Source of the DNA: Moniliella sp. 'wahieum'
Lineage: Eukaryota
Direction of reading: 5' to 3'
Length of the DNA: 64,000 nucleotides
Assembly: GCA_003971905.1 (NCBI GenBank)
Contig: RSEE01000008.1
Location: 62,001 to 126,000, forward strand
Positions 441 through 60,124 of the stretch are shown here, one piece after another (the stretch's first letter is position 1; every line of letters begins with the position of its first letter). Under the pieces are notes generated by a model. It saw only the letters and a list, made by a program, of their open reading frames with translations. It searched no databases and had not been told where the DNA came from. A program made the translations under genes and the position numbers.

Positions 441-478
441 TCACTAGTCACTAGTCACTAGTCACTAGTCAAGCTTGA
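441..478. repeat. 7-bp TCA/TGA-N4 array: (TCACTAG)x4-TCA-AGCT-TGA
   Basis: Read directly; the spacer changes from CTAG to AGCT in register. Confidence 0.95.
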
Positions 479-492
479 AGAGACAAAAAAAT

Positions 493-791
493 ATGGTGCG
501 TGGTCGTGTAATGCTTGAACAAGCAGAATGCGACAAGAACGCCAAGTACCAGGGACGCACTCAAGAACCGTTTTTCCCCTGGTTTTGACGACGCGAGGAT
601 ACTACGGCACCAAGACGGCGGGCAAGTTGTTTGCGCATTGGAAGGAGTTGGCTACTAAATCTCAGTGGAAATGGTTCCTCGCTCGGATGTCAACCACGTT
701 CCTCCGTGTCCACACGCGCTTCCTCGGGTACGGGAACGGATGGCGAGAACCGGAGGGTCTCGCTATCCTGGCGATCCCGCTGGTTCCTTAA
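493..791 (+). mobile_element. 3'-terminal fragment of a CRE/MoTeR-like non-LTR retrotransposon (restriction-like endonuclease C-terminus), degenerate
   Basis: Across one frameshift (~579) it reads MLEQAECDKNAKYQGRTQEPFFP/LVLTTRGYYGTKTAGKLFAHWKELATKSQWKWFLARMS. This resembles the 'E..K..KY....F.PLV.(S/T)..G' tail of REL-endonuclease (CRE-clade) elements. No RT domain is visible upstream, which fits 5' truncation. Confidence 0.5.
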
Positions 792-1913
792 TCTTGGTGG
801 CGCTTCCAAGTAACCCCCGCAAGATGAACGGTTAGGTTTAGACCAGCGTTCCCCCTGTCCCAGCCTTAAGCTCTGTCAATGAAATGGACGTAGTAGTAGA
901 CGCGCTCTTCTCGTACAAAGTCGGCAAGGCAAAATCGACTCAGGCAAGTTAGTAAACTGCCCATCTTATCGTTCCGGAGTATACCTGACAAGGTGGTGTT
1001 GTTGGTCTCAGATCATGATCTCCACCCTAAGGGATATGATGTCGATGATGGAAAGGGAAAAAACCATCACTGGGCCCCCGCTCAAAAGTGGCGCCCTCTC
1101 CCCCCTCTCCCTCCACACGCGAGGGGCCAGGCTGGAAAGCCACACAACACAGCCTTTCATTCTCGCCACACATCTGTGCGCTTGTAACATGTAAGGGGGG
1201 ATAGGTCTGAGAAGGGCGTGCAATGAGCGCTGAACGCCCCATCGCCATCTCCACACTCCTCACGACTGTAGCCTTTAGTCTGCCCCGTCACTATGGCCCA
1301 ATCATTCTTCCCAAACAAAAAGGCGGGCAGCGATGGCGATCTGACCGTGAGAAACGCATGCAACAGGATGGAGGAATACAGCGGCGTGACGATGTACTGG
1401 CCCACCAGACCGGTATGAGGTTGAGGTCCATCTCCACGGAGCAGCAGCGTTTTCATATATATATATATCTTTCACCTAAGCTTTCCTAGCTCTCTGGGGG
1501 CTCATTAACCCTCTTCGGTCGTCCGAGACTCCTCGTGTGTTGGTTTCCGAGAGGACAGGGAGAGGCGTCCCCGGCCGTAGGAGAAACTCCGTGTGGCGTC
1601 CATTACACGGACCCCGAGGGACGAAATAGTACACCCGAGGTCATCGAACGTGCGTGTGCGGATTTGTACCAGCCTATTATACCGGCTCCGTGCAATGCTG
1701 TAGAGAATAGGGTGCCAGCCGCCCAGAATAGGCACTGGTGGGGGAAGTACAGGGTCTAAACTCAAAATGATTAATTAGGAAAGAAGGTTCGAAGGACTTT
1801 CATTAATCATTACTGAAAACGTACTAGATTATAGGACCTACATAGTATACTCAGTATGCAGGACTCAGTATTCATTATGAAGGGCACTCAGTACACTCAG
1901 TACTCGCCTATCA

Positions 1914-1957
1914 TCAGGCCTGAGCCTCAGGCCTCACATGTCACATGTCACATGTCA
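1914..1957. repeat. 7-bp TCA/TGA-N4 array (GGCC then CATG spacers)
   Basis: TCA GGCC TGA GCC TCA GGCC TCA CATG TCA CATG TCA CATG TCA. Confidence 0.9.
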
Positions 1958-1976
1958 CAGGACATGCTCCAACTGT

Positions 1977-2828: not shown

Positions 2829-4392
2829 ATGATGTCTGCCCAGCACGGCCGCTGCAGTCTCAGCCAGACACCCTATGTGCCTATAGGAAACGATACAGGC
2901 CCCCTCACAGTGATGTGCATTACATCCACCAACGTCGCCTAGGTGCCGGTTATTTCGGAACGGTCTCTCTATCCAAGCGCTCGTCTGACCACGCTCTGGT
3001 GGCAATCAAGATCGTCCGGCTCAATGGGCACAAAGGCGGCCTACCGAGCAACATGGTTCGGCCGCAGCTGAAGGCGGAAATCCGTGCACTTTCTGCCCTC
3101 GCCCCGCACGATAACATTATTGGCCTCAAAGCGACTTGGTTCAACTCTGTTCAAAAGTAAGCTTGACCTTCCTTTTCCCCCATTCCCTATAGGGACGGAC
3201 TGAGTGAGACAATGGTTCCTTCGTATGGCCGCTTCGCCTGCTCCTCTCACGTGTATCCCCGTCGAGATGCTAACCAATTTGATTCAGCGCTTGCGCCCTT
3301 GTGTTTGACTATGTTCCAGGTGGATCTCTGGGCGACCTTATTGCTAAACACCGAGACACCAGGAACGGGAACACCCATCGGGATTGGATAGCAGCTTGGT
3401 GCAATCGTTGATGCACCAGCTACTGCGCGCCATTGACGCTTGCCACAATTACACGGACCCGATACTGGCAAACAGAGTACCATCGTTCACTGTTACCTCA
3501 AGCCCGCGAGTATACTTCTGGACGAGCGGATGCGACTCAAACTCGCCGACTTTGGTCTGAACCGCTCCTACCCCCGCGGTAGAGGAGGTGCCAGAGTCTA
3601 GGTGGCCCGCTGCATTACCTCGCCCCCGAGTTGATCGGCTTCAACCTGAGGAGCGCATCGTGTGTCCGGCGACGGACATGTATGCGATCGGGTGCATCTT
3701 GTACGAAATGTGCACCCTTACAACACTATTCTCCCCCATCCGAGCGGCGGGAACTCCGTGTGCAGTGGCTCGCCCAAAGGAACTACAACCCGACCTTGCC
3801 CCCAGGCTACCCGGCCTGGCTGACAAAGGTGGTGCAACAGCTGGTCAGCAAACAAGCAAGTGACCGTCCCAGTGCGCGCCTGCTGTTGGCATGGGCCAGA
3901 TGACGGTCAGGGCACAATCTACCTCCGAGGCTCAAGGAATGATTCCCAGGTCGGACATGCGCTTGCTTAATCCTGATATGACCAAAGGAGCATCGTCCAA
4001 GGCCAGCACCAGCCCCCCGACGAAGAACAGCAGTTCCAATTGTCCAACGACCGTTTCGCCCCACGTCGTGGACTCAATGATCTTGTACAAAAAGTCCAAC
4101 ACAGCCCTGTCGAATGAGTTAGGAAGGCATATCATGGACGGCCTCAACTCTGAGGCGGAATTGAAGGAACTGGAGAAGCAGGGCGAGGAACTGGACACGT
4201 GGTTCACGCACTCTGATGCCCAAGCTCGGAATCATGAGGTGGGGAAAAGGTCAATGCGACGTTGTACGATCAAGGGGCCAAGGGTGCGGAGGTGCTGATC
4301 TGGGAAGAGGAGCTTGAGAAGATGATGCCCCGGGTGGCATCGTGCGAAGATCAAGTGCAGGGAACGAATTGGTCATACCTAACCCCAACTAG
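2829..4392 (+). pseudogene. NIMA/NEK-like protein kinase paralog 1, degenerate (pseudokinase or pseudogene) with C-terminal coiled coil
   Basis: Motifs LGAGYFGTV (Gly loop), VAIK, HDNII, intron (GTAAGC ~3157 to TTCAG ~3287), HCYLKPASILL (HRD Asp replaced by Tyr, Asn by Ser), KLADFG, YLAPE, TDMYAIGCILYEMCTL, RPSA. Several frameshifts. Confidence 0.8.
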
Positions 4393-4663: not shown

Positions 4664-4758
4664 TGACTTCGCCCGGGATCGAACCGAGGACCTTATCCGT
4701 TAACTTGGGCACTAAGCCAGTGTTAAGGATACGTGATAACCAACTACACCACGATGCC
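4664..4758 (-). tRNA. tRNA-Val(AAC) with 21-nt intron
   Basis: Reverse complement: GGCATCGTGGTGTAGTTGGTTATCACGTATCCTTAACA[CTGGCTTAGTGCCCAAGTTAA]CGGATAAGGTCCTCGGTTCGATCCCGGGCGAAGTCA followed by a T6 Pol III terminator. Confidence 0.95.
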
Positions 4759-5102: not shown

Positions 5103-5954
5103 TGTCACGGGCTGCGGCGGACCCAAGATGGTCCGACCCAAGCTAAGGCCCGCCTGCTCCGCACATGCCCAGTAGAGCGTGCACCGCAGGCCAACCAAGT
5201 GTGATGACGGTTGGCTAAATTAAGGACCGTGGCCCGAAGGGTCATGCTCCGTGCGACAACAGTCGCCCCCGCCCAAGTCCAAGTCGGCCGGCCTAAATAA
5301 GGCCACCGAGCTTCCAGTGCCATGGCGACGACTGTCGCCCCGTCCCCGTTTCCTTTTCCTTTCTCGGTCGCGCCTGCGGCGACCAACCCCGCTTTTGACA
5401 TGTCTTCCTTTCTACACCCCCTCTTGTATCCGTTTCCCTTTTGATCCTGCCTGTACCCCTGGTTGATGGGGATCTTTTCCCCCACCTTCCATTCTCGTCA
5501 TCCTCTCGTCTCACCCTCCATTTCGTCCCTTTCCCGCCTATCCTGTCCGACTCCTGCCCGTTTTCCAGCCAATTGATCCAGTACCGGCAGCTCCTCTTGT
5601 TAGCGTCCGACATCTCCTCCGACCTCGTCCTCCAGCCCTTCGTCAGTCCAATCGCGCGAGCCCTCCTTCGGTCGCGGCGATTCCCAGTCTCAGTTGAGGC
5701 AGTGTTTGTCCCCCTCTGTCTCCTCCCGTCCCTAAGTCCCGAAGGCTTCAGACACGTTACTACGGCCCAAGCCGGTGCAGACGCAGCCTTGCCACACGTG
5801 CAGCCGCCCCACCAAAGGTCTCTCCTCGTCCCTAGCTCCGCTCGGACACACAACCAGCCTAATCCCGAAACTACCGTGAGTCGACCTACCGTCGCCTAAG
5901 GGATTACCCCAAAAAACCCCAGGGCGGGCCCCCTGGCGGCGCCCGCCCGTGACA
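5103..5954. mobile_element. Solo LTR (852 bp) with 10-bp terminal inverted repeat and 5-bp TSD
   Basis: Starts TGTCACGGGC (5103-5112) and ends GCCCGTGACA (5945-5954); flanked by direct repeat GTAAC (5098-5102 and 5955-5959); TG...CA ends; homologous to 7928-8880. Confidence 0.9.
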
Positions 5955-7452: not shown

Positions 7453-7808
7453 GCGGTTGCTGGGATCCCTATGGTGGAGGGGAAGGAGGGAAGGAGCAGA
7501 GAGTGTAAACGTGTAAACGCAGTGCGAAGGTAATATAGCTAGTTGTCTTCCTCGTGCAGGCGGGGGCATGTGACATGCCCCCGGCCACGTGACAACTTAT
7601 TTCCTTTTTTACTGCCTCTGTTGGTACTTAGTACTTAGTACATAGTACGCTGTCTGTCGATCCGCTCGATTTCATGCAGCGCTCCGAATCCAGAGCTTGG
7701 CGCTTGGTGGATGATCCGCTTGATCCATTTGATGAACTTGTCCACAGTCGACCCGCCGGCCGGCGCACCAATTCACAGCTGCATTCCAGAGACGGGACCA
7801 GGTCGTCT

Positions 7809-7850
7809 TGAACCTTGAAGCTTGAAGCTTGACGCGTGACGCGCGTGACG
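7809..7850. repeat. 7-bp TGA-N4 array (ACCT, AGCT, AGCT, CGCG spacers)
   Basis: TGA ACCT TGA AGCT TGA AGCT TGA CGCG TGA. Confidence 0.9.
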
Positions 7851-7927
7851 CTTGTTCCGAACACGCCGGACGCAGCTCTGACTTACAGTGCTGTGGCTGG
7901 CCAGCGAAATGGCGCGGGGCCTGGCAA

Positions 7928-8880
7928 GTCCACGGCTGTTGATGACGTTGATGTCGTTGGACATGATGCATGAGATGGTCCGATCCAAGCCAAGCCCGCC
8001 CGCTGCGCTGCACATGCCCAATGGAGCGTGCTCCGCAGTCCAACCAAGTGTGACATGCATGACATGTGAATGTGATGATGGTTGGTTAACTTTAAATTAG
8101 GTACGGTGGCCCGAGGGGCCATGCACGACAAGAGTCGCCCCCCGCCCGGCAGTCGGCCCAAACCCGAGCGGAACTAGCGGAGCTAGCCGCTGGGTGGAAG
8201 TGGCTGGGAGCTTTTTGGCACACCGCACTAGTGTCCCAACAGACGACCGTCGCCTATCCCCGCTTCCGTTCCTTCTTGGTCGCGCGCCTGTAGCGACCAA
8301 CCCCTCTTTTGACGTGTCTTCCTTTCTATAACCCCCTCTTGTATCCGTTTTCCCTATTAATCTTGCCTGTACCTCTGCTTGATGGGGATCCTCTCCCCCA
8401 CCTCTTCCATTCTCGTCTTCACTCTTGTCCTTGTCCACCCTCTCGTCCCCTCCCGCCTATCCTGTCCGACTCCTGCCCGTTTCCAGCCAATTGATTCAGT
8501 AAGGCAGCCTCCTCCCTTCTTAGCTCCCGACTCTTCCGATCTCGTCCTCCAGCACGTCATCGGTCCAGTCGCGCGAGCCCTCCTTCAGCCGCGTCGATTT
8601 CCCTCTATCCGGTCTCAGTTAGGCAGTGTTTGTCCACCGCTGCTCCTCCCGTCCCTAAGTCCCGGAGGCTTCAGACACGTTACTACGACCCAAGCCGGTT
8701 CAGACACAGCCTTGCACGCGTGCAGCCGCCGCACCAAAGGCCTCTCCTCGTCCCTATTAGCTCCGCTCGGATCCACCAACTGCCTACGCCCGAAACTACC
8801 GTGAGTCGGCCTACCGTTTCCTAAGGGATCGTACCCCCCCAAACCCGGGCGAGCCCCCTGGCGGGGCCCGCCCCGGGGCA
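7928..8880. mobile_element. Diverged second copy of the LTR at 5103-5954 (same orientation)
   Basis: Colinear similarity throughout (AGATGGTCCGA.CCAAGC, GCACATGCCCA, CCAACCAAGTGTGA, CCTATCCTGTCCGACTCCTGCCCG, GGCTTCAGACACGTTACTACG, CCCGAAACTACCGTGAGTCG, CCCCCTGGCGG.GCCCGCCC); ends degenerate and no clean TSD. Confidence 0.85.
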
Positions 8881-9194: not shown

Positions 9195-9245
9195 TCAAGC
9201 TGGAAGCTTCAAGCTTCAAGCTTCAAGCTTCAAACTTCAAGCTCA
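9195..9245. repeat. (TCAAGCT)n heptamer array
   Basis: TCA AGCT GGA AGCT TCA AGCT TCA AGCT TCA AGCT TCA AACT TCA. Confidence 0.9.
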
Positions 9246-9746
9246 AAGGCATCTGTCTACTGCAATTCAACTTCACCGGCCTCACCATTCAACCAGGTGC
9301 GCAAAAGGTGTACCATATCTACCACCACCAAGACAATGGACAGACGTTACACTGTGGCTTCAATCCATCCCCGTCTGCTGGATCCTAAAGATGCTACATT
9401 AAATTACACTCCTCGTCGTCCTATTAGCGCGTCGCCCCACGGACCAGACTCTGTTCAACGAGAAAGCAAGGAGAATGATAGTGGCGGGTGGCCCAGCTTT
9501 GTGTAGCAAAAAAAGAAGGAAGAGTTTGTGGCAAAGAATGGTTGCGATTGAGCCTCGTGCAAAGGCACTGCGTCAATGTGGGGGCAGGCCAAGTAAGAGT
9601 GGGTCGCGCATCTGCACCACAGATCAAGATTCAAGATTCAAGTACATCCGCATAACACCAAAGAGAAGAGAAAGAGGAAAAGAGAGAGAAATAGATCAGC
9701 GTTTCTTCCATTTGATCGCGTGCCACTCGGTCTTGGGCCTTACGCG

Positions 9747-11565
9747 TTACGGCAGCTCGCTCCATTTTGCAAACAAGGGACTACCCAAGCCGGACGGCAG
9801 GTCCCAGCCTGTCGTCGCGTTGAACGTGAGCCCAGGCTGGGGGCACCCACCCACGTCGCCCGAGGTAATGTCGCGCAACAGGTCTGGCTTGGCGTAGAAC
9901 GCCGGATTGACCCATCCCACCCGTGCCTTGCCCTCGAGTTTGCGCTGGTTGTTGAGCAAAGCAATCATACTGGCAAAGATGGGCGTCGCAGCACTTGTTC
10001 CGCCAATCAGTTGCAGCTCGTTATCAGTACCACCGTCAGGTTGAGCGACATGGCCGAGACGTCCGGGTAGGCACGGTTACTGGCATTGTAGTAGGATGAA
10101 TGGGCATAGTTAATCTGTTCCAAATACTTGGTGACGGATGCGTTCTACAGCAGTCCACATTTCATGTCAGTTCAAGGATCCGCGGTGACAGCCAACAACG
10201 ACCGGAGAGGGGTAGGGACGTGCCTGGTAAGCAGGGCGCTCAAAGAAGCCTGTGCTGGAGAACCCGGCTCCGCCAAAGAAGCCATCGGCCGAATTGCCGT
10301 TGACGACGACTTCGGGGAATCCCTGGGTGCCCCCGACCGATAGCACATAAGGACAGTCACCGGGCAGGGTCGGGTTGAACTTCCCATGGCAGGTCAAATT
10401 CTCATATGACTGCACCCCGTTCAGGCCATTATCGCCTGATCCGTACAGGACAGATGTACCCAAAGCAGTCATCTTTTGAATCGTGTTGCACAGTTGAACT
10501 GCATCAGCAGGCGAGTAAGACGACTCGTCGTCCACGTACGACGCAGTAATCACGCCGGGTCGACTGGTGTCATTGTAGTTGTCCAGGACCCAGTTGAAGG
10601 CCTGCAGGAACGGCTCGTTGGCAGATTGGTTGTCTGTGCCAAAGGAGAGAAACTGGGCATGAAGGGGAGCAATCAAGCCAGCAACCATGTCGACATCCAG
10701 CATTGCTTCGCCTCCGGGATTGTTAGGGTCGTTGGTCGAGTTGCCGGCTGAAATGATGGGAATGGTGTAGTTGGGGTAGTCGGTATAGTTTTTCATGTAG
10801 GTTGCCAGGTCGCTCGGCGAGACGTACTCGCCCAAAAACCCAAACACGAGCACATCCGTTTCCCCCTTTTGCGGAACAGGGGTAAAGTTACCCGCACCGT
10901 AATAGTGTTTGAGGCACTTGGTTGTCACCGCCGATGCATCGCACTCTGCGCCCCCAGCCTGAGCGGCAATCGCTGCGGGTTGTGCGTTGCCCTGCAGGTG
11001 AATGGGAGCCGAGGTACGCACGTTAGGGAACGAAGTAAAAGGGTGTACATTCACAATTGCTTCGTGCAGGATGCCGTCAGGAATCGAATATCCTTCCGCG
11101 GCACGAAGGATGGTGTGGCCCTGGGTAGTATGGGTGTAGGCCTGCAGCGAAGTGTTCCAGGCAGCATTGGCAGCAGCTACTGTGCTCTGCACCCGGAGTT
11201 CGTCCCCCCACTTGCTGGTGCTGATGTCCGATTCGTGCGTGCCATGGGCAAGCAGGTGGGCCTTGACAGCGGCAACGTGCTCTGGCTTGGGGCGTGTACT
11301 GTGCGAGCTCAGTCTCGGAGAGCCATGGGCCGCCATGGAGGGAGGTGGCCAGCATCTTGGCGTCCAGGCCGTCCTGGTTGCCCGGCGTGAGGGCAACGGT
11401 GTAGGTCAGCACGTGGTCCAGAGGCACGGGCGCCGAGTTGGCCGCATAGCTGTGGGCTGCTGGCGCGGCGGAAGCGACGGTGCGTGCGGCGGCGACGGGC
11501 GCAAGGGCCAGGCCCACGGCCAGGGCGGTGGCGGCGACGGGGGCGAGCGTAGCGGCAGGAAGCAT
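9747..11565 (-). CDS. Secreted sedolisin / tripeptidyl-peptidase (peptidase S53) with pro-domain
   Basis: Signal peptide MLPAATLAPVAATALAVGLALAPVAAA; GGEAMLDVD (catalytic E/D), SGDNG oxyanion Asp, CPYVLSVGGT, RAYPDVSA, GGTSAATP (catalytic Ser), DITSG, GWDLPSGLGSP; GC-AG intron 10145-10223; frameshifts near 11290 and 10025. Confidence 0.92.
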
Positions 11566-13134
11566 GGCGAGGCGGGAGAGGCGCAGCAGCAGCAGCAGCT
11601 GTGCGTGCGGCTATATTAGGTAGTGGAGGTAGTGGAGGGGGCAAGGACAAGGGGGGCGCCAGACCACATGGACGCTCCTTCGGACACGCGAGGCGGGGGG
11701 CTAATCGACGTAATCCTAACAGTAGGCGGCTGCCGATCCGATCAGCCATCATGCATCACGCACCATGCATCATGCATCACCCACCATGCCCCCCGCCTTT
11801 GCTGACGTCATAGCACCCACATGCCACCCGCGCCAGTCACCACGTCCCCCAGCAGGCAAGTGTGCCACAGTGCGCAGCCTGCGAGCGCAGTCCTTTCGCC
11901 CGAGCAGCGAGCAACCTCGTGGTGACCGGTCACCGGTCACCGATCGTCTTGATAGGGCCGTGCATGGGAACCCTAGCACTCCTCTCGTAGTTCTCAGCCT
12001 GTCAGATCTCACATCTCCTTCTCATTCTGATGGTCATTAACTTCATTACCAGGGCAAACGGACCCACCAGGGCCAATGGGAATCGATGATCTTTGGCACT
12101 CCACTAGAACAAAGCGACCGTTGGTCTACAGGGCCATCTCCGCCATTGGCCAGTTTCAAGGATCCTCTCTTCGTCCGTACAGTGGGCGTGTATATTATGT
12201 TGAAGCCACAGCAGCGGCAGAAGGATGCGCTCCCCTCTATCCATACACTTTTTGCGACGAGTGGAGAACAACCGACACTTCAACGCGAGTGTCGCGTTGG
12301 AGGCCATTCTGAGAACTTGTTGATTTTTTGATGGTAGCAACCCGATGCCGCGAATAACAGGAGATGGAGATGGGGAAAAGGATGAGGATCATATTCACTG
12401 AGTGGAAAGAGGGTGAGGTATATATACGCCTCGAAGAAGAGAACATACGAGCTGAATCACATGGAGGAAGAAGGAGATAGTCAAAGGGAAAAACAGAGTC
12501 TAGAACAAACCAGGAACCAGCCAACTTGGTGATCAAACAGTGCTCAAGTGGGTCTGATCCCGACAGCGAATGTTGGCAGTAGAGAGAGGCAATGACTATA
12601 GTGACCAGTAGACCCAGTATGGTGTATAGGTCCCACAGGGAATCATCGTCTGGCCCTGCCATCATGTGCCATCGGGAGGGTGTTGTGGGTGATGGAAGAG
12701 GGAATTGAATATTGATGTGGGCCCCGAAAGGGTAGAATACGATGATCTCCATGCCGGGAGAGTCTGGTAGTTATTAGGGGACGACTGTACGGACCGTTCT
12801 CCCAGACCATATTGGGCCACTTGGAGTGACCTACATCGCACTACAGGCATGGAGGGTAAGATTAGATACCGCAGGTCCGCAGAAAAAGAATCTACGGCGG
12901 AGCTTGAAGCTGGTTATGGCGGCCTCTCTTGCGGCATACTCCTGTGCGAACGAGCATGGGCTCCGGATTATTACGCTCGCATTCTGTTCCCGGTCCGGCA
13001 AGCTGCGGTTCTGCCCTTTTTTCTGTTCATTTGAAGCATCTGTGTTCACCTTCTGCGTCTGCATCTGCATAAGCGAGACACAAGCGGCATCTTGCTAGGT
13101 ATTGAAAACAAAACAATATCTTCCACTATCATAC

Positions 13135-13229
13135 GGCATCGTGGTGTAGTTGGTTATCACGTATCCTTAACACTGGCCAAGTGCCCAAGTTAACGGATAA
13201 GGTCCTCGGTTCGATCCCGGGCGAAGTCA
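13135..13229 (+). tRNA. tRNA-Val(AAC) with 21-nt intron (13173-13193)
   Basis: A box TGGTGTAGTTGG, anticodon stem TATCC/GGATA with AAC at 13169-13171, B box GGTTCGATCC, T7 terminator 13231-13237. Confidence 0.95.
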
Positions 13230-13317
13230 CTTTTTTTGGTTGGTCGGTTGGTCGCACCCAATCAACCCATCAACCGGCCAGGCCGAGGTGGTCTTGTTTT
13301 GGCCTCGACTGGCCCTC

Positions 13318-13381
13318 CATCCGTCATCGTCATCCGTCATCGTCATCCGTCATCGTCATCCGTCATCGTCATTCGTCATCT
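13318..13381. repeat. 13-bp tandem repeat (CATCCGTCATCGT)n
   Basis: About 4.5 copies read directly. Confidence 0.85.
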
Positions 13382-14275: not shown

Positions 14276-14336
14276 CCCACCCAGCCACCCAGCCACCCAG
14301 CCACCCAGCCACCCAGCCACCCAGCCACCCAGCCAA
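14276..14336. repeat. (CCCAGCCA)n octamer microsatellite
   Basis: About 7 copies read directly. Confidence 0.9.
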
Positions 14337-14482
14337 TCGAAAGGGGACTGAATGAATATTGAATCCACAACCGCTACCCCGCCCATCCGTTCCATCGGGT
14401 TTGGGTCTCCCCTTGGCCCTGGCCCTTATCCCCTCCCATACACACCCATACCCACCCACGCCCACACCCACACGGGCACACC

Positions 14483-16888: not shown

Positions 16889-18394
16889 GGGGGGTGGTGG
16901 TAGCGGTGGTGGGGGTGGTGGTAGCGGTGGTGGGGGTGGTGGTAGCGGTGGTGGGGGTGGCGGCGGCGGTGGTGAGGTGAAGACGGGCTGGCGAGCTGCG
17001 ACAGCCGGCGGCGGGTGCGGTTGGATGCGGCTGGATGCGGTTGGATGCTGGGGGTTGCTGGCTGGGGCTGCTGACGTAATGCACAGCTGATGTGTGGCGG
17101 GGTGCCTGCGTGCGCTGCGCCTGTGGAGAGGCGGGGACGCCGATGCGCCTGCGTTGGCCACTCGCTGCTTGCGCCGCGGCTGATTACTGGTTAGGACTGA
17201 GTCGTGGCCAAACGGGCGCCCCACGGTGACCATCTGTCTCGCCCCCTTGCCGTTCGTCCCAGCCCACGCGCAGCTGGGAGGGAGCGTGGACAGAGACAGG
17301 ACGGACAGCGCGATGGGGCGTGCCAGCCAACTGGCAACCCAAACAAACGCAGCGCCTCTGCGCCTCCCCCGCTGTGCCTGGGTCTCTGGTCTGGCCGTGG
17401 CACGCATGGCATGCATGACATGTGGCAGGCGAGCGGCCACCCTCGCAATCATCGGCCATTGCTCACGCATCATCATGTGACCCACTCGTTTCACGTCCGC
17501 TTGTCATGCATGCCATGTCATCACACGTCACGCGCAGACAGGCCTCCAGCCAGACTCAGCCTCCGGCGTCGGGGGATTCAAGCTTCACGCTTCACGCATC
17601 AAGCACCCAGTCCCTGGGCCTAGCAAGCGCCACCTACTAAATCGCAGGTGGCCGCCTCCCCACTCGGACGTGGGGCAGCGCCCGCTTTCACACGCCCCGT
17701 CCCGCCCCGCGCTGGCCCAACCATTTGATCTGGCCACCGGCCACCGCGCTCCCCCGTCCCCCGTCCAACGTCCAACACGCTCCCACCGCCCAATCTCATC
17801 CCCCTCCCAACACTCTCAGAACCGAGGGGGTGCCACACTGGCGCCACCCCATTGTGGCCATCGCCTCTCCTGCCTGCCTTGTTGGCCTTGGCCTTGTCTG
17901 CCACGACGTCGCCAGTAGCTCGTAGTGACACCGACCGCTCGTCTCTATAGCTTGCCTTGAGATGGACCCAACCACCTGCCTGCGGCGTCGCCTGGCTCAG
18001 TTGAACGTTCAACTCAACGTACTCAGTTGAGTTGAGCGCCAGGCCGCAGCAGCAACCCTAGCAGCGAGCATGCCGTGCCCGTCACATTTGCTCGTTTCAA
18101 CGTGCAACTTCCACAAGGGGCGGTGACGTGGCAGCCTGTGGGCTTCCTGCGCGCAGCTTGGCGCTTTCCGTCTCGTTCGGTTCAACCCGTGGTGCAACGG
18201 TGCGCTTGAACGTTCAAGAAGGCGGAGGATCGGTTGGAGCGTCCATCTGCCACGGCTTCCGCGGGCGGGCGTGGGTTGCCCCACTCGGCCTCGGCTAGCC
18301 TGGGCGTGGCTGCGGCGGGCTTTGTTGCTTCCCGCGCTCCTTGTCTGCGTCCTGCGCTTGCGCTTGCCCCTCCTCTTCCCGCCGCCGCCGCCGC

Positions 18395-21123: not shown

Positions 21124-22851
21124 GAGACGATGCGGGGAGCTGGTCGCGCTGATCTGGGGACGCGCACGAGTTCTGAATCTTGAGTACTTTTAGTACTCAG
21201 GCGGAGTGAACTGTGTCTATTCAAGGCAGCCACACCATGTAACTTCGGACTTAAATCGTGCAGGGAGCGGATGATCGATTTGGTGAGCACAATGAGGAGC
21301 ACAACGATGAGCGCCAGCCGGGCAGTCCAGAGTCTGAGTCGGCGTGGCTGGCTGGCCAGCGTGGAAGATGGATGTGAGATGATTGCATGTGATAGGTCCA
21401 ACACCGTGGCTGGGAAGGGCTGGGATGCAGGATGGACGCGATGGAATCTGGAGCGATCAGAGGAGGTAAAAGGTGGTAAGCGATAAAGGGTAGTCTCGGG
21501 TACATGTAGCGAAAAGCCGTGGTAATGCAAATGTAACCACGGCGGCGCGAGGTTTGAGTGAGACGTTGGCGTTGCGGACAATGGGGGCTGAGTGGTACGG
21601 TGTACTGGTGGTGGGGAAAGGGGGCGCAGCAGGGGGGAGGGTGGGAGATCTTGGACCAGAAGCAGAATCCAATTACTTGGGTGTGACGTGTGGCACGTGA
21701 CATTACAGCGTACGGGGGATAAGTTGATGAAAGTTGAAAGTTGGACTAAGCACTGCGTATCCAAATCGGTTTGATCAGCTTAGCGCGTACTCAGCAACAG
21801 TACATCAGGTACGTGGTAGGGTTAGGAAAGGGTGGGCATTACGTCAGATGGATCTTAGCCGTCCGTGCTTAGTCAGGCTGAGCGGCTGTTGATGGAGCAG
21901 GCACGAGGGGGGCGGTTAGCGGGTGCTAGTTACGTTCAGTTCAACGTTCACTGGGCAGGCCTCCACCCTGAGCTCAGGCCTTACCTGTTACGCGTTACGC
22001 CGGTTGGGCCCACGGGCGGCAGGGCATGCCGACACCCCAGGCCGTTTGATTTGAAGCGCTGGCTGAGCCGCGCCGACTGGGGACCGCGCTGAGTTGCTCA
22101 GTGCGCTCGCACCAGGGCTGCGACTCAGCCTGAGCCAGGTCCAGCCAGAGCTCCTGGGGTGTCTGAATCTGAATAGTGCGTAGTGCGTCGTGCGTCGTGC
22201 GTCGTGCGTCGTGCCTAGTGCTGACTGGTATCGATTATCAACGCAGCACAGAGAGGGCGAGCGATGATCGATGATGGCGATGATGAATGATGGATGGGGC
22301 GATAATCGATAATCGGTAATCGATAATCGATAATCGGCACTGGTCGTGCTCGGGCTGGCACTGGCGCAGAGCGAGGCAGGCGACGGGGGACGCACCCGGC
22401 GGAAGCATCGCATGGTCGATGGTCGATGAGCGATGATCGATGAGCGCTTTCTTCGCGCTCTGGATCTGGATGTGGATGAGGACTGGGCTCTGGTTCTTGG
22501 CTCTGGCTTTGAATCTGAGTGAATCTGAGTCCGAGTCTGACTCTGTGAGAGTCACTAGTCAGGCACGCGGCGTGAGAGGGGCCGTGGCACACAGCCGCCA
22601 TGCGTCGCCGCTCGACTGGCCGCATGGCTATTAGCATGGCTGCTCGGTGGGAGTGGTCAGTGGTCAGTGTACTCAGTATGGTCATGTCACATGCACGTCC
22701 TCGGCCTCACCGCCCTAACCCTCACATCGCCCTCTCATCACCCCAGACAGCGGCCCAGCTGGGCTGGTTTGACTCTCTTTCTCCCCGTGCTCGTCCCTCT
22801 CGTCTCCCATCCGCTTCGTATCCCCCACGGCTCTCGCTCTGCGCTGCGCCC

Positions 22852-28395: not shown

Positions 28396-28928
28396 AGGGG
28401 CCGAACCGTATGGGGCGCTGGGAGCAGGGTCATTGTGTGTATCCCGAGACGAACAAGGACGAAAAGGAAGGAGATGGAAAGACAGTGGTATGACAGAACG
28501 AGATAGCGGAGAGGGCAGCTAGCCAACCTTATATATACCTTTTACTCACCAGAGGCATAATATGCATGCGACATGCCCAGGAAGGGGGACAAGGGCACAG
28601 CGACAAGGGTAGGTCACCGACGGCCCACCGGAAGATAACAACACTGCCGGATGGGGGGGAGAGCAGTTGCGCCCTGTGGCATGCCGCATCGCATCTCAGA
28701 TCTCAGATCTCATGTCTCATGCCTGATCGCAATCCTTTCGAGGGGCCACGGTGGGGGGGGGCTTGGCAGATCATGATGACCGATGACAGGGAAGGTTCGT
28801 GCGTAGTGGAGACATGGCGGATCGAGCATGGCTGTTAGGTCGCTGGGGCGTCGCGCTGTAGGCCCAACAATGTATGTGGGCAGAAGAAAAGAGAGCCTCC
28901 GTCGCGCTGGGTGATGGGCTGGGATTCA

Positions 28929-29001
28929 TGATTCATGAAGCATGAAGCATGAAGCATGAAGCATGAAGCTTGAAGCTTGAAGCTTGAAGCTTGAAGCTTG
29001 A
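28929..29001. repeat. 7-bp TGA-N4 array, 11 TGA in register (TTCA, AGCA x4, AGCT x5)
   Basis: Read directly. Confidence 0.95.
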
Positions 29002-29489
29002 AGGAAGGAATGACAACGGGGTTTGAGCTGCGCTGCCCTGAGGCCTGACGAGGCTTGCCTGTACTAAAACGCAAACGAGCGGACGCAGCGGTCGGACGGA
29101 AAGAAGGCTGGTTCGTCCGTAGGTCGTCGCTGTGGGTTTTGGAGTGGGAAGAACAAAAGTTGTTCTCGGTGTCGTTGCTCATCGCGCCCAAGCGGGGTGC
29201 CCAGCGAGTGACGTCAATACCCAGTTGAGTACTCAGTTGAGTACTCAGTGCGGGCCAAGCGGGTCAGCGCGGTGCTTGGGGCCGAGCTTGGCGCGTCGGC
29301 TTGCGCCCGTGCGGCTCCGGCGGGAGGGGGAGTTGGTTGGTCGGGCGCAACCCGTCTGTGCTGCCTCGTCCCACACTCGCGTTGGGCTGAATATTGAATG
29401 GCGCAGGTCTCACATAACCCGCTTCTCCTGCCTCGGTTCCGACCATCTCAAGCGACTAGTCACTGCTGAGCCGCCGCTGAGTCCTTGGA

Positions 29490-29534
29490 TCATCGATCAT
29501 CGATCATCGATCATCGATCATCCACCATGCATCA
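29490..29534. repeat. 7-bp TCA-N4 array (TCGA x4, then TGCA)
   Basis: TCA TCGA TCA TCGA TCA TCGA TCA TCGA TCA TCCA CCA TGCA TCA. Confidence 0.9.
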
Positions 29535-30011
29535 TTCCGCTGATTCAGCCTATTATGCAGCTTGCGTAATCAACACCAGCCCGCCATGGTTAAACGTTAA
29601 CCGTAGACGATTGGCCGATCCGCTGCTATCAAGCGACCCTTCGGCCCTAGAGGGGGGGGGAAGGGGGGGGGGGGTGGCATGTGCGAGCTAGAGAGGAGCA
29701 GAGATTCTGTCTCCCTCCCTTAGCTTGATGGTAAAGTGTTTGCTGGTTTCATATACCTCCCCTCACGCGTCACGTCCCGCTTGTGTTTAAATAAATCCCA
29801 GTGATGGGTATGAAAGTTTTAGGACCCACCCACAATCGATTGCCACTGCTCAGACGATCGATCTGATCGATGATCAATGATCGATGAGCCAGATGGACCT
29901 CATTAGCTCACTGGTCAGCGCCTGAGCGTGAATTTTTTCAAGCGACAATCGGCGACAAGTGATCGGCGACAAGTGCACCCGTTGGAGCTACGCATTCCAC
30001 CACCCGATCCC

Positions 30012-38877: not shown

Positions 38878-39749
38878 GGTAGTGTTTGCACCTATTGTGA
38901 GAGGCCGTGAGGGATGGGCGCTGAGCAGTGGGAAGAGGAGAGAGAGGCGGTGGTGGAACGGTGGAGAGCATGCGTCTCTTCCTTTAGCATCTCGACCGCC
39001 CCAGCTGAGGCACCACTCAATGCCTCAATGCCTCTGCGCCTCGGGCCTCAGCGCCTCAGCATGGATGTTGTGATGGGGACGCTGGTGTGTTGTGCGCGGT
39101 GCTGAATCAATTAATCAACGTTCAACACAACACGGCCCACCGCGCCTGTTTCTCTCGGGCCTTTCCGCCCGCCCGGGCCAGGGCAGCGCAGGGCGGGGTT
39201 AAACGTTAAACATTAATTAACCCAAGCGAAGGATTAATGAGAAATTATTTTCATGTCATGCTGCACGCCGGGCTAAAGCTCCCTGACATATCTGCGTCAT
39301 TGGGGCTCTAGGGCTGTGCCTCCGTGGAGTGTGCGATTGGACAGAAGGCTTTGGAAAACAAATGAGACGGACGCTCGCGTTCTCGCTCTCTTCACCTTCT
39401 TCTCGTCTTATCCGCCCAAGACTCCGCCGGTCTTCCTTCCATGCTTTTTGCCAGCGGTTAACGCTAGTGGCGTCTAGCTTCAAGCTTCAAGCTTCAAGTG
39501 AAGCTTCACCCCTCAAAGGATCCGTTCCATTTTTTCTCTTTTTTAGTTGTTGGTGCCAGCCTTGTTGGGGGCCCTGCGCTTTAGGCCACCTATTACAACA
39601 AACGATCAATGTTCACAACGTACTGCAACGAGGACGTTGCTGACGCCTTGAAGCTTGAAGCTCAGCCTGAGCCCTCAGCCTGAGGCGACTTGAGCAAAAT
39701 TATGCATACAGAGACATCAAAAAAGTAGCGCGACTGAGAACCAAAAAAG

Positions 39750-39844: not shown

Positions 39845-41151
39845 TTGTGAAAGGGTGGAATGTGGTGTGCAAAATGGGGTACAGTCTACACTCTCCTGCT
39901 GTTCTCTGATGCCAAGATTCGGACCTTGCCTTTTGTGCTCTTGGCGCCTCGTCCATCCTTTTGGAGGGATATGGAATAGACCAAGACATCCATCCCCTTC
40001 ACCAGTCACCTTTGTCCTTCCCCGTACCCAGTCTCCCACCCTATATATACCCTAGCATCGAGCATCCCTGTCTGTATCCGTAGCATCGAGCCCAGCCAAT
40101 CGGGGGGAGAACAACTGTACTATTTACTGCCGTGGGTCGAACACGGGAAGGAGAGGTGAAACTATGGTGTAGTGCCAGAGACACCGTATCTAAAGTGCGA
40201 ATGCTGCTTCGTCTCGGGTGGAAGTAACTAATGCGCGGGACTTAGTGAACAACGCTGTGGTGCATTTGTGCTGGCTGCTATATAACAACTCGGACAACCT
40301 GGACATGTCGGGGGCGCGGGCCGGCGTTCGGCCGCCGGGGAAGGCGCCCGCAGGAGGACCGGGTGTCATGGGCGAGCCCGGATCCGGCGAGGGGGCGGGA
40401 GGCCGCCAGAGTGGCTGAGGTGGTGTTTGACTTATTTATACGGGAAATACCGAGGCGGGTGTGGCGTCAAGATAGCTGTGATGGGGTGTGGGAGAAGCCT
40501 CTCTTGTCACCATGATGAGGCGAGCAAGGCAGGGGTCAGAATGGTGGGGGTGCAATCATGGGGGAGGCAGCCCGGAGGCGCAACGAAGGAGCGAACAGAG
40601 GCGGATCGGAGCCACCTCGCACAATGCTCCCAACAACCGTTACGCGTTACTCTCATGCAGGCACATGCCCTGCGTGTTTGGTTTCCGGCGGGCGGCGGGT
40701 GCAGAGGCTGCCCCAGTGGTGGATTCGACGTGACGCGTGACGTGTGACATGTGAGGCAAGACAATCCATGTCTCAGGATTTAAAAACTTGCTGCCGGCCA
40801 CCCACGACGCTCGCCCAGCGGCAGTGTGGTGATCCAAGTTAGTTAACGTGGGGGGAAGCGACGGGGGCAGTGTTGCAGCGGTGGTCGGGCAGGCGCACAA
40901 ACAGTGGCGGTGCTGGCTAGGATTGGAGGCCAGATGCAGCGGCCAGCGACCAGCCTGACTCCCGCTCCCACCGCGCCGTCCCTTCCCCCTCCTTAAAAGA
41001 CCAGATCAGTGTAGGCACTACTTGCACTTTGACCAACACCACCACCACCACTTCCAGCTGCAAGAGCATTTTCCCTGCCTTTCAACCAGGGCATCGCACG
41101 CCTACAAGGCCACCTCCCCCCCCATCAAGAACGATCAACTATCGAGCCATC

Positions 41152-56070: not shown

Positions 56071-57761
56071 GGACGCGAGCTACGTGCGAATGGAGGGTGG
56101 GAGACGGGGCAAATGATACGGATGCGTCGGAGAGTAAGTGGGGCACTGTGCGGCGGCGACCGACTGTGGACGTCGACTCTAGCTCCAGCACAGGTGCGGC
56201 CGGAGGGCGGAGCGGGCAGATAGATGGGGGGGGAAGGGCAGCGAGCCGGCCGGGCGGACTGGCAGACAGTGGGAGGCAGCCGCAGACAGACGCTCCTAAT
56301 CGGGCTGGGCCGGAGCGTGCCGGAGCAGGCTGCCCAGCACATGACATGATGTGTCACAGACGCCCGCCAGACGACGCAGGGAGCTCGTCGCGTTCATCAG
56401 CATGTCGGTGATGGATGATGTCGATGATGTCGATAACGCCGTATCTCGTATCGCTTCTGCATTCTGCAAATAGATTGACTATGATGTCATACATGCATGA
56501 TGCATGATGCATGATGGGTACCGCCAGGTGCTGCCGCCTGCTGCCGTTGTCTACACCGGACGCGTGACGGCTGACTGGATGGAGTGCTGAGAGGTGGCTA
56601 GATATCCAGGGATTGCCGAGTGCTGGGCGATATGGATACGACCCAGCAGCTCCTACATGCAGTGCGCCGCCCAGGTGATCTGTGCTCCCGAGTCTCCTCC
56701 AGCGGAGGCCAGAATGTGGCCCGCGCACATGCGAGTTGCCACACCAGTGCGTATATGTCGAGCGACTTGGGACTACTGTTACATGTTATAATAGAGTGAC
56801 TAGTGACTCGAGCCACAGCGTGTCACAGCTGTCCTCCGTGCCCCTCCCGCCTCTCCCGCCGTGACGCGTGACGCTGGTTCGCAAGCAGCAGTGAGGAGTG
56901 TTATAGGGGGTGGTCGGTGGGAGGAGCGCAACTGCGCCTATAAGGGGTGTTAGGTCGATGTGGTGGAGATGAAGCCCTGAGGGATCACTCTGAGGCCTAT
57001 GGCCGTGAAGAGCATGGAGTGAAAGAGGTGGATCTCGCTACTAGAGGGTGTGTGTTCATTGTGAGCCACAGAGAATGAAAGGATAACTTCATGCCCCCCC
57101 CCCCCCCCGCCCCTATGAATACGATCGGCATCCAAAGAGCAAGGTTGAACGTTGATGTCCCTCCTAATAAACTGCTTTCAGTTCCCCATGGGCGGTCATA
57201 TGTTTATTGCGTCCCGAAAGGTGGCCTCCGATAGAAGCGGAACACCTTTGGACCGCCCGGCGAAGGAGCCGCCGCTACGACTGGAGCAAGCCAATGCGGC
57301 GAGAAAGCCAAGTGCCAACAGAGGCGCACCCACCAACCTCTTCTCCGGACGAACAGCACACACCTTGGAGAGAGACTGCTATAGTGGCAAATAGCCGAGG
57401 CGGGCTTGGTTTCGGATGGATGAGCATTATCAACCCCATCCCTCTAGAAATACGCATGTTTTCTTGGCAGTCAGGTCACGTAGTATTCTCTCAGCTGTAC
57501 TCTTAGAGCGTTCTTGGTTCGCTTCTAGCTACCCGGAACACTCATGCGAGGACTTCCCGTGATCGACTTAGTGAGAGTACCATAGCGGTCCCATATATAC
57601 TCACACTTGTGCTGCTGGCGACCTACGGTGTTACATCCAAGGGAATGAGGGCGAAATGACATCTATTCACGACGTTCACACACGATTCGCGAACGTGCTA
57701 ACGCAGACCAGTTTATCTGTACGAGATCCCTGGGAGGAGCTCCTCGGCGTCGGTAGAGCGT

Positions 57762-59323
57762 TCAGATTTCATCGGCGTTTAGCTTCGGGAGCAGGAGCGA
57801 CCAATGCGGATACGAGCTCACCGCACTGTCTCCAATCCCCAGATTCCTCAGCAACACGTTCACGTACGAGGCGGCTTGGGGGGGTGGGTGTGCCCGCCAC
57901 CTCACAAGGTCGGCCTCCACCCGCTCCCAATTGACTTTGACTTCCCCCTGGGTCGTGCGGTTGTCCTTTGTGAAAACGCCACAGCGCACCATGGCCAAAT
58001 GGACAAGCACAAACTTTTCCACGGCGCATACCGGAAATTTGGGCCGGGGCCCGATGCGCATAGCCAACTTGTTCCAAGTATCGTCAAGGTAGTAGCTTAG
58101 TCCTAACAATAAGGTCATGTTCGACTTGTCGGATGAGGACTTATTCGATTGTGGTACTGCACGGGGGTCATAGGAGAGGTTAGCCGCGATCCTGGGCATT
58201 GTGGGAGATGAGGCGCACTCGATTCAGTAGATCATGCCGAAGAGTGTTCCAATGGGGGGTCAGGACCTTCTTGAGCTCAAGGAGAAAGTCGTTCAAAGGT
58301 CCCTTCTGGTTGAGGTCAAGAGGGATGCGTAGGAGCTGCCGATCCTCAGCACGCAGTAGGAAGCGCCGCACACGAGACCACAGGTAGGTATTGTTGGTAA
58401 TGGACACACCCGGGGCACACCACACCGCGATCGCGAGGGCAGAAACCCACGGCTTCAGGGATCGACGTTAGTCAGATAGCCAACAAGGAATCCGAAGAGG
58501 CCAACATACCTTGTTCACGTCCAAGAATGACCGGTAACGCTGCGGGGTCTTCATGGAAGCTGATATCAACTCCCGATGATTGGTCTCCATGCGATCTACC
58601 GCATAAAGCATCAAGCGCCTGACGTAGTCGACAGCCTCCACAACCATCCCGACCGTCGCAGGTTCGTCTAAATCTTGTTCGTCGAGCAAGCCCTCGTCGA
58701 GCATTGGGGGGAGGTCTGGAACTGCTTCTCCCCACGGGAACCGCTGGTGCGTTGCTCCGGGCGATGTGTCGTCCCCGTCCCGGATATAGTCGGCCACTCG
58801 AAACTGCGGCCCAGGATTGCCCGTCACGGTACCCAATGGCAAGTTCTCGGGAGTGTCTTGGTTGCGACGGTCTTGCTCCACACGCTCATCCGGAGCGCCG
58901 CGTGGGCCGTCCTGCGCTGGCAGGCCGCCGGCGTCACGGCCGCGGACACTTTGCGACGGAGCACTGGACACGCTGGGCTGCGCTGGGCTTGGCTTGGCCT
59001 CGGCCATGGTCGTGTTGTCTGCACTCGAGGGTGCTTCGGGTGGCCGGAGGTTGCTCGTACTCTGCGCCACCTCATCCAGGCGTGACAGAGCTCAATATCG
59101 CGATGTAACACGTTACTGATGTGCTTGCCTGCCCTCGCATGCTTGATCGCGTTCCCCTGGTGCATCGGTCGAACTGTGCAAGCTAGGCACTGGTACCACA
59201 TTGTTCCCCTCAGCTTCATTGGGTGCCAGACCGCGGTAAAAGGCACCTCAGATGCCCTCGTCCTCTCGTGCACACGCGCGAGCTGTTGCCATCCGTTGGC
59301 GTCCGAGAGTCGACGTAGAGGCA
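57762..59323 (-). CDS. Hypothetical protein with N-terminal C2H2/U1-like zinc finger (possibly transposon-associated)
   Basis: Chain of same-strand ORFs: WYQCLACTVRPMHQGNAIKHARAGKH; acidic linker; helical domain VEAVDYVRRLMLYAVDRMETNHRE; apparent GTATGT intron near 58509; further exons to 57762. No family recognised. Confidence 0.45.
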
Positions 59324-60092
59324 TGGCGGTGGTGACTTTTATATTAGTCACTGGGGATGGGTTAATTGTGGTGGTGGTGGTGGTGGTGGCGGGATAAGCT
59401 CTAAGCCAGCCAACGATACTATTCTTACAGAGACAGCAAACAGCCAGGCGCCAACGGCCCTGGCTGTCAGTAGCCCCTGGATACAGGGAGGGACAAGGAA
59501 ACAAAGGCAGTAAAAGGGAAAGAACACGAGCGATCCTATAGACCTGTTCAACGTTCACGGGGGAGCGATGGTCCTTGGTCGATGGCCCCTGGTCCAAACG
59601 CACGAACCACCCTGTGGCTCGTCATCGCGTCACGCGTCATAGGCCATCTCTATAGTCATATCATTTACAGGGCATAAGACTGGGGCAAAAATGCTGCGCC
59701 CAAACCGATCTGCGCATCAGGCCTTGGTTGTTGGTGCCAAATCCGCTTTTGGAAACCACAGGGGAACTGTTACCGTAGATCAGGACCCTCTGGGGCCCGC
59801 CATTGAGATTTCTTCCTTCCCCGGTGGGGTTGCCTTGCCTGTGTCCCATTTTCCATATGCAATCCAGCCTCTACTGCGCAGGCGAGCCCAGGGGACACGG
59901 CCTGGACGGATGGTTACCTGATGGTGGCGGTGGCGTAGTAAAAAACGAGTGAGCTGGCACCTGCCGATAAGGCGTCGGTGTGGGAGAGTCGAGGGTGAAG
60001 AAACGTTGTGGAGCGCTGCAACTTGAAACTTGGAGCAGGCCGAAGAAACGCGTCGCGTGCAATCCATCGACGCTGGCGCCGTGCCGGAGGCT

Positions 60093-60124
60093 TGACGCGT
60101 GAACGCGTGAACGTTGAACGTTCA
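60093..60124. repeat. TGA/TCA-N4 array upstream of SMC5
   Basis: TGA CGCG TGA ACGCG TGA ACGT TGA ACGT TCA. Confidence 0.85.

Follow-up and report, generated by a model that had tools for sequence, protein, structure and literature searches.

Palindromic spacers copied from the flank between TNA triplets at 7-bp pitch in intergenic DNA of Moniliella sp. 'wahieum': possible excision scars of a cut-and-paste transposon

Genes of the window and a 7-bp pattern between them

The subject of this report is a stretch of 64,000 nucleotides from the Moniliella sp. 'wahieum' assembly GCA_003971905.1 (contig RSEE01000008.1, positions 62,001 to 126,000 of the forward strand), hereafter called the window, and a pattern in its intergenic DNA, in which triplets of the form T-any base-A (TNA) follow each other at a distance of 7 bp and enclose a 4-base spacer that is frequently its own reverse complement. 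The window is eukaryotic nuclear DNA with ~58% G+C, and Pfam matches revealed fungal genes for Opi1, glycogen synthase, SHQ1, an aldehyde dehydrogenase, a GATA factor, an amino acid permease, an SMC-type protein, and others. The aldehyde dehydrogenase shares 54 to 59% identity with proteins of Tilletiaria, Ustilago, Pseudozyma, Exobasidium, and Testicularia, and reaches 81 to 85% only with proteins from assemblies. The source is accordingly a basidiomycete and probably belongs in or close to Ustilaginomycotina. The gene map is rough, being built from Pfam matches on open frames only, and some of the DNA counted below as downstream may be unrecognized coding sequence. All window counts come from this single 64-kb stretch, to which we added one outside control and the literature; positions are those of the window.

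An earlier note, made from the sequence alone, had described TCA or TGA arrays at 7-bp spacing with a usually palindromic spacer in most intergenic regions. The triplet-spacer-triplet reported there is present at all 21 of the 21 positions cited, although several of these sites, such as 1224, 14353, and 49129, are single pairs and not arrays. The motif T[CG]A-N4-T[CG]A occurs 161 times, compared with 60.1 ± 8.3 in 30 dinucleotide shuffles (z 12), whereas the neighboring spacings N3 and N5 occur 94 (59 in shuffles) and 52 times (57 in shuffles), respectively. The second harmonic, N11, was counted 95 times vs. 63 in shuffles. When all 32 triplet classes were compared, the excess at distance 7 was largest for TAA/TTA (40 vs. 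6.7 expected) and TCA/TGA (161 vs. 48.5). Chains of at least three TNA number 30 at pitch 7, as compared with 4, 9, 1, and 9 at pitches 5, 6, 8, and 9. The 7-bp TNA pattern is thus confirmed as real and very strong.

The excess of palindromic spacers also held up: they make up 112 of the 240 TNA-N4-TNA pairs (47%) and 55 of the 88 pairs inside chains, against a background of 6.1% of all 4-mers. Fourteen of the 16 possible palindromic 4-mers occur, AATT and TATA being absent, and the changes of spacer without loss of phase are genuine (for example, CTAG to AGCT at 441 and GGCC to CATG at 1927). The scaffold needs to be widened from the T-S-A (S, C or G) of the earlier note. Among direct triplets at distance 7, palindromic spacers were found for TCA in 45/77 (58%) and for TGA in 35/57 (61%), and the share is also raised for TAA (8/17, 47%) and TTA (5/13, 38%), so that the scaffold is T-N-A; for each of the remaining 60 triplets, the share is at most 17%. 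The heptamer ATTCACG, mentioned in the same note for Ustilago, occurs 4 times on both strands combined and is thus not a feature of the window.

A 12-base unit with a filler copied from the flank

In 93 of the 112 pairs with palindromic spacers, the two triplets are direct copies (middle bases C/C in 45, G/G in 35, A/A in 8, and T/T in 5), while in 10 the middle bases are the complementary C and G; the arrangement is thus not that of a simple fold-back palindrome. This bears on the proposal that a hairpin or template-switch process shaped the arrays. An inverted copy of 2 to 3 flanking bases is indeed made, but pairs able to fold back are a minority (10 of 112, vs. 93 direct), and the stability of hairpins gives no reason for the restriction to T-N-A.

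The unit that accounts for the pattern is a 12-mer, [TNAXY][Y'X'][TNAXY], that is, a 5-base direct repeat whose copies enclose 2 bases, the reverse complement of its final two. On both strands together, it was found 112 times, at 60 independent loci, whereas 100 shuffles averaged 0.25 and never exceeded 3. The length of the distance-7 identity around the pairs, determined for 72 loci, has a sharp mode at 5 bases (25/72), with 7, 4, 7, and 11 loci at lengths of 3, 4, 6, and 7 bases; the distance-7 runs of the whole window, when pooled, instead show a monotonic fall-off. Identity extends past the TNA in 61 of the 72 loci, and at the 5-base mode, the extension is always by two bases on a single side. 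Twenty-six 12-mers are isolated, 8 of them oriented one way and 18 the opposite way, with an oriented middle base of C in 11, G in 11, T in 3, and A in 1. No flank consensus was visible around these 26 units, and by inspection, their orientation did not track gene direction. A variant with a flipped middle base in the second triplet, TNAXY-Y'X'-TN'A-XY, retains the +7 geometry and occurs 10 times, compared with 0.26 in shuffles.

In an unbiased scan for direct repeats with an inverted-copy filler, only the combination of pitch 7 and a run of 5 bases stood clearly above expectation (33 vs. ~11 expected), and 26 of these 33 are of the TNA type. The pitch/run combinations 6/4, 6/5, 8/5, 9/5, and 7/6 were at chance level, and 7/4, 8/6, and 9/7 reached ~1.5 to 3 times chance with counts of 5 to 12. 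Plain 5-base tandem duplications at TNA were not enriched (51 vs. 61 at pitch 5; TNA-ended 5-mer doublets, 6/63, about chance), nor were 7-base tandem duplications, of which centered doublets were few, or 1-base inverted copies (spacers with complementary central bases at 15 of the 64 non-palindromic loci). A scar with both inverted copies, which corresponds to pitch 11, was not seen in the window (N8, 36 vs. 62 in shuffles). The product is remarkably uniform, a stereotyped outcome. Many of the non-palindromic spacers are one substitution short of a palindrome.

Relative to how often the corresponding dinucleotide follows TNA in non-coding DNA, individual spacers are used 0.3 to 2.1 times as frequently, with CGCG, ACGT, and AGCT somewhat high; for the missing AATT and TATA, ~4 and ~3 would be expected from these dinucleotides. 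Because identity passes beyond the TNA and the spacers roughly follow the post-TNA dinucleotides, we conclude that the filler was copied from the flank and does not stem from transposon ends. The earlier note had considered excision footprints in which a 3-bp TNA duplication is retained together with two bases from each inverted end, as might be left between the TNA copies by a Harbinger- or Tc4-like element. Of its three options, this is the closest and is right in kind, and both Harbinger (PMC12477816) and Tc4, which targets CTNAG (PMC11071193), are described as classically duplicating TNA, so that the T-any-A target is shared with the units seen here; according to PMC4561436, scars of the mariner type keep the element ends and both duplications. 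Its details do not fit. Fixed transposon ends would yield neither an extension of identity into the flank nor a spacer usage that tracks local dinucleotides: the first half of the spacer recurs past the second TNA far more often than by chance, which element ends could not predict, and fourteen different "ends" would be needed, with frequencies following local dinucleotides. Excision by PIF/Harbinger elements is described as precise (PMC4561436). A footprint of PIF/Harbinger or Tc4 was therefore rejected, the TNA agreeing but the filler being a copy of the flank, and we judge this version very improbable.

Arrays and variants

The arrays, isolated units, and variants are collected in Table 1. 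Ordinary slippage acts on the arrays, because a non-palindromic variant, TGAAGCA, has been amplified to four copies at 28936. As in models of microsatellite birth from proto-repeats, a heptamer of 1.7 copies made in one step can thus grow by slippage, as in that array; unlike proto-repeats that arise from chance substitutions, the seeds here would come from a site-specific, structured event.

TABLE 1 Arrays, isolated 12-mers, and variants of the TNA pattern in the window
Feature	Position(s)	Strand	Remark
[AGTCA]-CT repeat array, 6 TNA at pitch 7, spacer CTAG	439..478	+	End switches in phase to AGCT with flipped middle base (TCA AGCT TGA AG)
Compound array TCA GGCC TGA, then TCA GGCC TCA (CATG TCA) x3	1914..1959	+	
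TGA array, in-phase spacers ACCT, AGCT, AGCT, CGCG	7807..7842	+	
(TCAAGCT)n array, ~7 units	9195..9243	+	Inverted counterpart of the array at 7807
TGA CCGG TCA CCGG TCA	11923..11942	+	First pair is the flipped-middle-base variant
(TAATCGA)n array	22300..22336	+	TAA scaffold works too
TCA GATC TCA GATC TCA	28693..28730	+	Decayed units after
11 TGA at pitch 7: (TGAAGCA)x4, then (TGAAGCT)x6	28929..29003	+	
(TCATCGA)n array	29486..29522	+	Divergent aldehyde dehydrogenase/SHQ1 promoter
(TGATCGA)n array	29864..29891	+	Inverted counterpart of the array at 29486
(TCAAGCT)x3, then TGA AGCT TCA	39476..39510	+	
TGA CGCG TGA CGTG TGA CATG TGA	40731..40757	+	Spacers single transitions apart
(TGATGCA)n array	56493..56516	+	Upstream of glycogen synthase gene
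TGA CGCG TGA, then TGA ACGT TGA ACGT TCA AC	60093..60125	+	Last pair with flipped middle base
Isolated 12-mer TTACG-CG-TTACG	9740..9751	+	One of 8 with the 2-base extension downstream on the + strand
Other 12-mers in + orientation, starts	14353, 26340, 29388, 29763, 29864, 36880, 39115	+	
Isolated 12-mer TTACA-TG-TTACA	1183..1194	-	One of 18 in minus-strand orientation
14 other 12-mers in minus orientation, first TNA	5055, 7964, 8927, 12706, 21941, 22552, 29039, 29591, 36821, 40745, 49270, 56779, 57146, 59548	-	
Last three 12-mers in minus orientation	11749, 49115, 49129	-	
Flipped-middle-base variant TGAAC-GT-TCAAC, perfect 10-bp palindrome plus XY	18002..18013	+	Like 29226, 48905, 11923

Two pairs of arrays carry one unit in opposite orientations, with a match confined to the arrays: 7807-7842 and 9206-9241, 1.36 kb apart, and 29486-29513 and 29864-29891, 0.35 kb apart. 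The 15-mer TTGAACGTTCAACTC, which includes a perfect 12-bp palindrome, occurs three times (18001-18015, 48904-48918, and 60114-60128), upstream of Opi1, an exonuclease gene, and the SMC-type gene, with unrelated flanks; it could be a real regulatory palindrome or a set of recurrent flipped-base scars at TGAAC. A different repeat, (AGCTCTCTCC)x10, has a period of 10 bp, occupies positions 20991-21120, and has TCAAGCT-TCAAGCT on either side; it looks like a second repeat grown inside a heptamer scar.

Heptamer arrays in other sequences and at other triplets

As an outside control, public metagenome contigs were scanned for five TCA at 7-bp pitch, which returned at least 124 loci; these are not matched in composition and are mostly probably prokaryotic. 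Among the matches listed, 122 unrelated loci with at least five T[CG]A at pitch 7 have palindromic spacers in 24 of 885 cases (2.7%), as against 26 of 35 (74%) in the window's seven chains of the same kind. From this low share in the 122 loci listed, it follows that TCA arrays of pitch 7 are not palindromic as a rule. No clear relative of the window's pattern was found among the matches listed. One metagenome locus, L061 (60% G+C), contains two nested inverted pairs of TGAC(C/T)(G/A)G heptamer arrays, ~2 kb apart (1533-1563, 1668-1684, 3384-3400, and 3517-3533); it resembles an element with inverted ends built from repeats and is probably an unrelated element.

These data bear on whether the units are ordinary heptamer microsatellites, in which self-complementarity at six of seven positions lets the units form hairpins and expand more by slippage, the isolated forms being decayed arrays. 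Growth by whole units does occur, as seen for (TGAAGCA)x4 at 28936, and palindromic arrays fold modestly, with -5.3, -10.4, and -7.7 kcal/mol for 37 to 40 nt, compared with -4.6 and 0 kcal/mol for non-palindromic arrays of similar length. However, only one of the three palindromic arrays folds better than all of its shuffles (z -4.3, -1.7, and -0.2). Among the 29 distance-7 arrays of at least 17 bp in the window, TNA is combined with a palindrome in 12 and with a spacer that is not palindromic in 4, while the remaining 13 are built of other heptamers. Decay would predict random registers and smooth lengths, whereas a peak at exactly 5 matched bases and one fixed register were observed; hairpin stability should favor G-C closing pairs, yet only T...A works; and adjacent units may differ at all four spacer bases and still be palindromic and in phase (CTAG to AGCT at 441; GGCC to CATG at 1927). 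The pitch-7 TCA arrays of other organisms, in the metagenome matches listed, are non-palindromic. Plain slippage was thus rejected as the sole source, since the units, despite growth by whole units, follow a TNA-plus-palindrome rule (12 of 29 arrays) that is absent from the metagenome loci listed, and an origin as ordinary microsatellites appears improbable.

Several heptamer arrays at non-TNA triplets also contain a palindromic 4-mer, namely, CAG-CATG at 13845-13863, TGG-TGCA at 20391-20422, ACC-GGCC at 17732-17746, CCA-ACGT at 17762-17776, and GAA-CTAG at 25723-25755. Arrays of this kind obey the inverted-copy rule as well, less often than TNA arrays do.

Location of the units with respect to genes

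Pfam-supported coding sequence accounts for 38.5% of the window and for 834 of its 2,418 TNA sites, yet only two of the 112 palindromic pairs were located within it (binomial p, ~1e-18 to 1e-20). One of these two is in a multi-exon permease gene and may be intronic. Such scarcity agrees with the earlier note, in which the pattern had not been noticed in conserved coding sequences, and is what is expected of a frameshifting insertion. Forty independent loci lie within 1.5 kb upstream of nine supported genes, and 9 lie in the 1.39-kb divergent promoter of the aldehyde dehydrogenase and SHQ1 genes (together 14.9 kb), as compared with 3 loci in the 6.4 kb of intergenic DNA that is downstream or convergent. 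This 5' bias could reflect insertion into open chromatin or weaker selection upstream of genes.

Enrichment upstream of genes, together with the strictly maintained phase, is also what binding-site arrays for a lineage-specific promoter or chromatin factor reading TGA/TCA at 7-bp pitch would show, which was another option of the earlier note. The internal structure of the units does not support it. No sequence is conserved in the spacer, where self-complementarity is the sole constant and is copied from the adjoining bases, a feature that recognition by a protein does not produce; TAA and TTA also serve as triplets; and most loci are single 12-mers. With T and A alone fixed, fourteen different spacers, and no flank consensus, the conserved recognition sequence of a transcription factor array is lacking, so that this candidate was rejected and can be regarded as extremely improbable.

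Excision scars or a host process

Transposons whose excision proceeds through hairpins on the donor DNA are known to leave a direct duplication accompanied by a short inverted copy of the flank, and the footprints of Ac/Ds (hAT) are palindromes of flanking DNA that arise through such hairpins (PMC4561436). For hAT, Transib, and RAG, the proposed route is hairpin opening by Artemis-like enzymes of the host and subsequent end joining, which leaves footprints (PMC5499845). As in the footprints of hAT elements (Ac/Ds and Hermes) and in the P nucleotides of V(D)J recombination, as these are presented in PMC4561436 and PMC5499845, the units of the window retain a target duplication and carry a short palindrome of the flank, which there results from off-center opening of a hairpin. 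A preference for a symmetric T...A target, nTnnnnAn, is likewise known for a hAT element, Hermes (PMC10368747). Unlike in hAT footprints, the pitch here is 7 and not 8, a single base separates T and A, and one product occurs almost exclusively. The units differ further in being known as scars alone and dense enough to shape intergenic DNA and to seed microsatellites. The target duplication length required by the 7-bp pitch exists among elements of Basidiomycota: hAT7, which groups with Ac/Tam3-type hAT elements, has 7-bp target duplications in Puccinia and Melampsora (Pucciniales), and so has Kyakuja in Laccaria (PMC12730594). The comparison is by duplication length alone, and the parts of PMC12730594 cited here describe these elements in rusts and mushrooms, not in Ustilaginomycotina.

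The reading to which we assign a probability of about one-half is that the units are excision scars of a cut-and-paste DNA transposon, some of which were later extended to short arrays. The element would insert at ab-TNA-XY and duplicate these 7 bases. On its excision, covalently closed hairpins would form on the flanking DNA, as with hAT, Mutator, Transib, and RAG. With nicks k bases from the tip of both hairpins and ligation of one strand, the product would consist of the left copy, the reverse complement of its last k bases, and the right copy from base k+1, with a net gain over the empty site of always 7 bases. At a k of 2 or 3, this would give ab-TNA-XY-Y'X'-TNA-XY or its mirror image, depending on the ligated strand; the TNA would be kept as a direct repeat, and the 4-base palindrome would be templated by whichever two bases adjoined the site. 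A k of 4 or 5 would give the rarer form with a complemented middle base in the second triplet, a k of 0 would give a plain 7-base tandem duplication, and a k of 1 would give a 6-base repeat. A new event at an internal triplet would produce an identical unit, and one at an edge triplet would add a new palindrome in phase; slippage would additionally copy whole units.

Compared with this scheme, the products seen correspond almost exclusively to k = 2 to 3 and in a minority to k = 4 to 5, and those of k = 0 and k = 1 are not enriched. The apparent asymmetry of the 12-mer would vanish, because a 7-base duplication of ab-TNA-XY would be centered on the triplet. As in an excision footprint, a direct duplication of the putative target flanks the filler in most pairs (93 of 112), and this filler is the reverse complement of the adjacent flank, as in P nucleotides. 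The usual length of P nucleotides is two bases. The transposon as agent, its 7-bp target duplication, and the hairpin step are what we infer from these features, the unit's anatomy, statistics, TNA specificity, and avoidance of coding sequence having been observed directly.

Several observations weigh against excision scars. Among 1,793 inverted 9-mer pairs in the window, 31 are flanked by a duplication of at least 3 bases, and none of these has TNA, so that no inverted-repeat pair flanked by a TNA duplication was found. Likewise, none of the 162 reading frames of the window has a Pfam match to a transposase family, and the insertion itself is deduced from the pattern alone. With 60 to 72 loci in ~39 kb of non-coding DNA, the density amounts to ~1.5 to 2 scars per kb of intergenic DNA, which is very high for transposon scars, and several per cent of the non-coding TNA sites would therefore be scarred. 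Known hAT footprints are more varied than the single product seen here. In the deduced 7-base target, T and A occupy positions 3 and 5, which departs from the canonical hAT target of 8 bp with T and A at positions 2 and 7; the window shows a pitch of 7 and the triplet T-N-A. Nor is the deduced target a simple shortening of the Hermes preference, nTnnnnAn. Finally, the same 12-mer is also in excess, more weakly, at non-TNA triplets (70 vs. 9.2), for example in (CAGCATG)n at 13845 and (TGGTGCA)n at 20391, and 53 of these 70 lie outside TNA arrays; this excess fits a strong but non-absolute target preference and other readings as well.

The lack of a visible element, the density, the single product, the target mismatch, and the non-TNA excess are the reasons why our estimate for excision scars is no higher and why we keep as possible, though rather unlikely, a host process without a mobile element. 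In such a process, a TNA-specific nuclease (for example, a domesticated transposase like the hairpin-forming Kat1 of Kluyveromyces) or a template switch of a polymerase would act on open promoter DNA and be followed by templated repair with a fixed gain of 7 bases. It predicts a sequence anatomy identical to that of transposon excision and fits the absence of an element or transposase from the 64 kb, the high density, the uniform product, and the position of the loci upstream of genes. A double template switch would yield the exact 12-mer if Y'X'T were copied from the opposite strand, with a return at the T of TNA, and a longer inverted tract would give the flipped-base variant. However, a switch that requires pairing between positions 1 and 3 of the triplet should serve ANT, CNG, and GNC equally, and the palindromic share there is 0 to 17%. 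We know of no such host nuclease, and a direct duplication of 5 or 7 bases is the classic mark of staggered integration. A more specific form, in which the host itself encodes a TNA-specific nuclease that forms hairpins (for instance, a domesticated transposase) or has a dedicated repair pathway, either of them still at work in open promoters, and the units are not relics of a conventional transposon, seems unlikely.

Other features of the window

A pair of protein kinase paralogues (3525-3578 and 41386-41439) shares 83% DNA identity over 54 nt. Two copies of an intron-containing tRNA gene lie on the minus strand at 4664-4758 and ~39750-39844, with 95% identity over 107 nt. Both were missed by ARAGORN and by a whole-window Rfam scan at the gathering threshold; in a local Rfam scan, the match to tRNA scores 43 bits and has 24 nt inserted in the anticodon region. 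A segment of ~750 bp is duplicated at ~5200-5950 and 8110-8880, 2.9 kb apart, in blocks of 78 to 95% identity with several small indels and no Pfam match, and could represent paralogous genes, leaders, or an old repeat. The two copies were also compared for a scar that one has and the other lacks, and no such indel was seen. Very dense tandem repeats with periods of 5, 6, 8, 12, 13, and 18, different in kind from the TNA heptamers, occupy positions 13000-14500 (3' of Opi1) and 24000-25500 (3' of the GATA gene).

Implications

We found no published description of the pattern in a literature search that had little reach into subscription journals. Palindromic footprints derived from flanking DNA are already known; what appears to be new is the anatomy (TNA, a gain of 7 bases, and a single product), the density, and the seeding of promoter heptamer arrays in a basidiomycete. 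The pattern is easily counted in any assembly, so that its phylogenetic spread and its link to an element family are directly testable.

If a host-encoded nuclease or repair pathway were responsible, the window would bear witness to a lineage-specific mutational process that writes insertions of 7 bases, builds heptamer arrays, and continually remodels promoter spacing. If the units are excision scars, one stereotyped event would have marked several per cent of the non-coding TNA sites and left an unusually clean record of past transposon activity in a stretch now without a visible element. They would also offer a concrete case of site-specific microsatellite birth and a means by which promoters change in length and spacing, and the uniform 2-base inverted copy would report on how DNA hairpins are opened and joined in this lineage.

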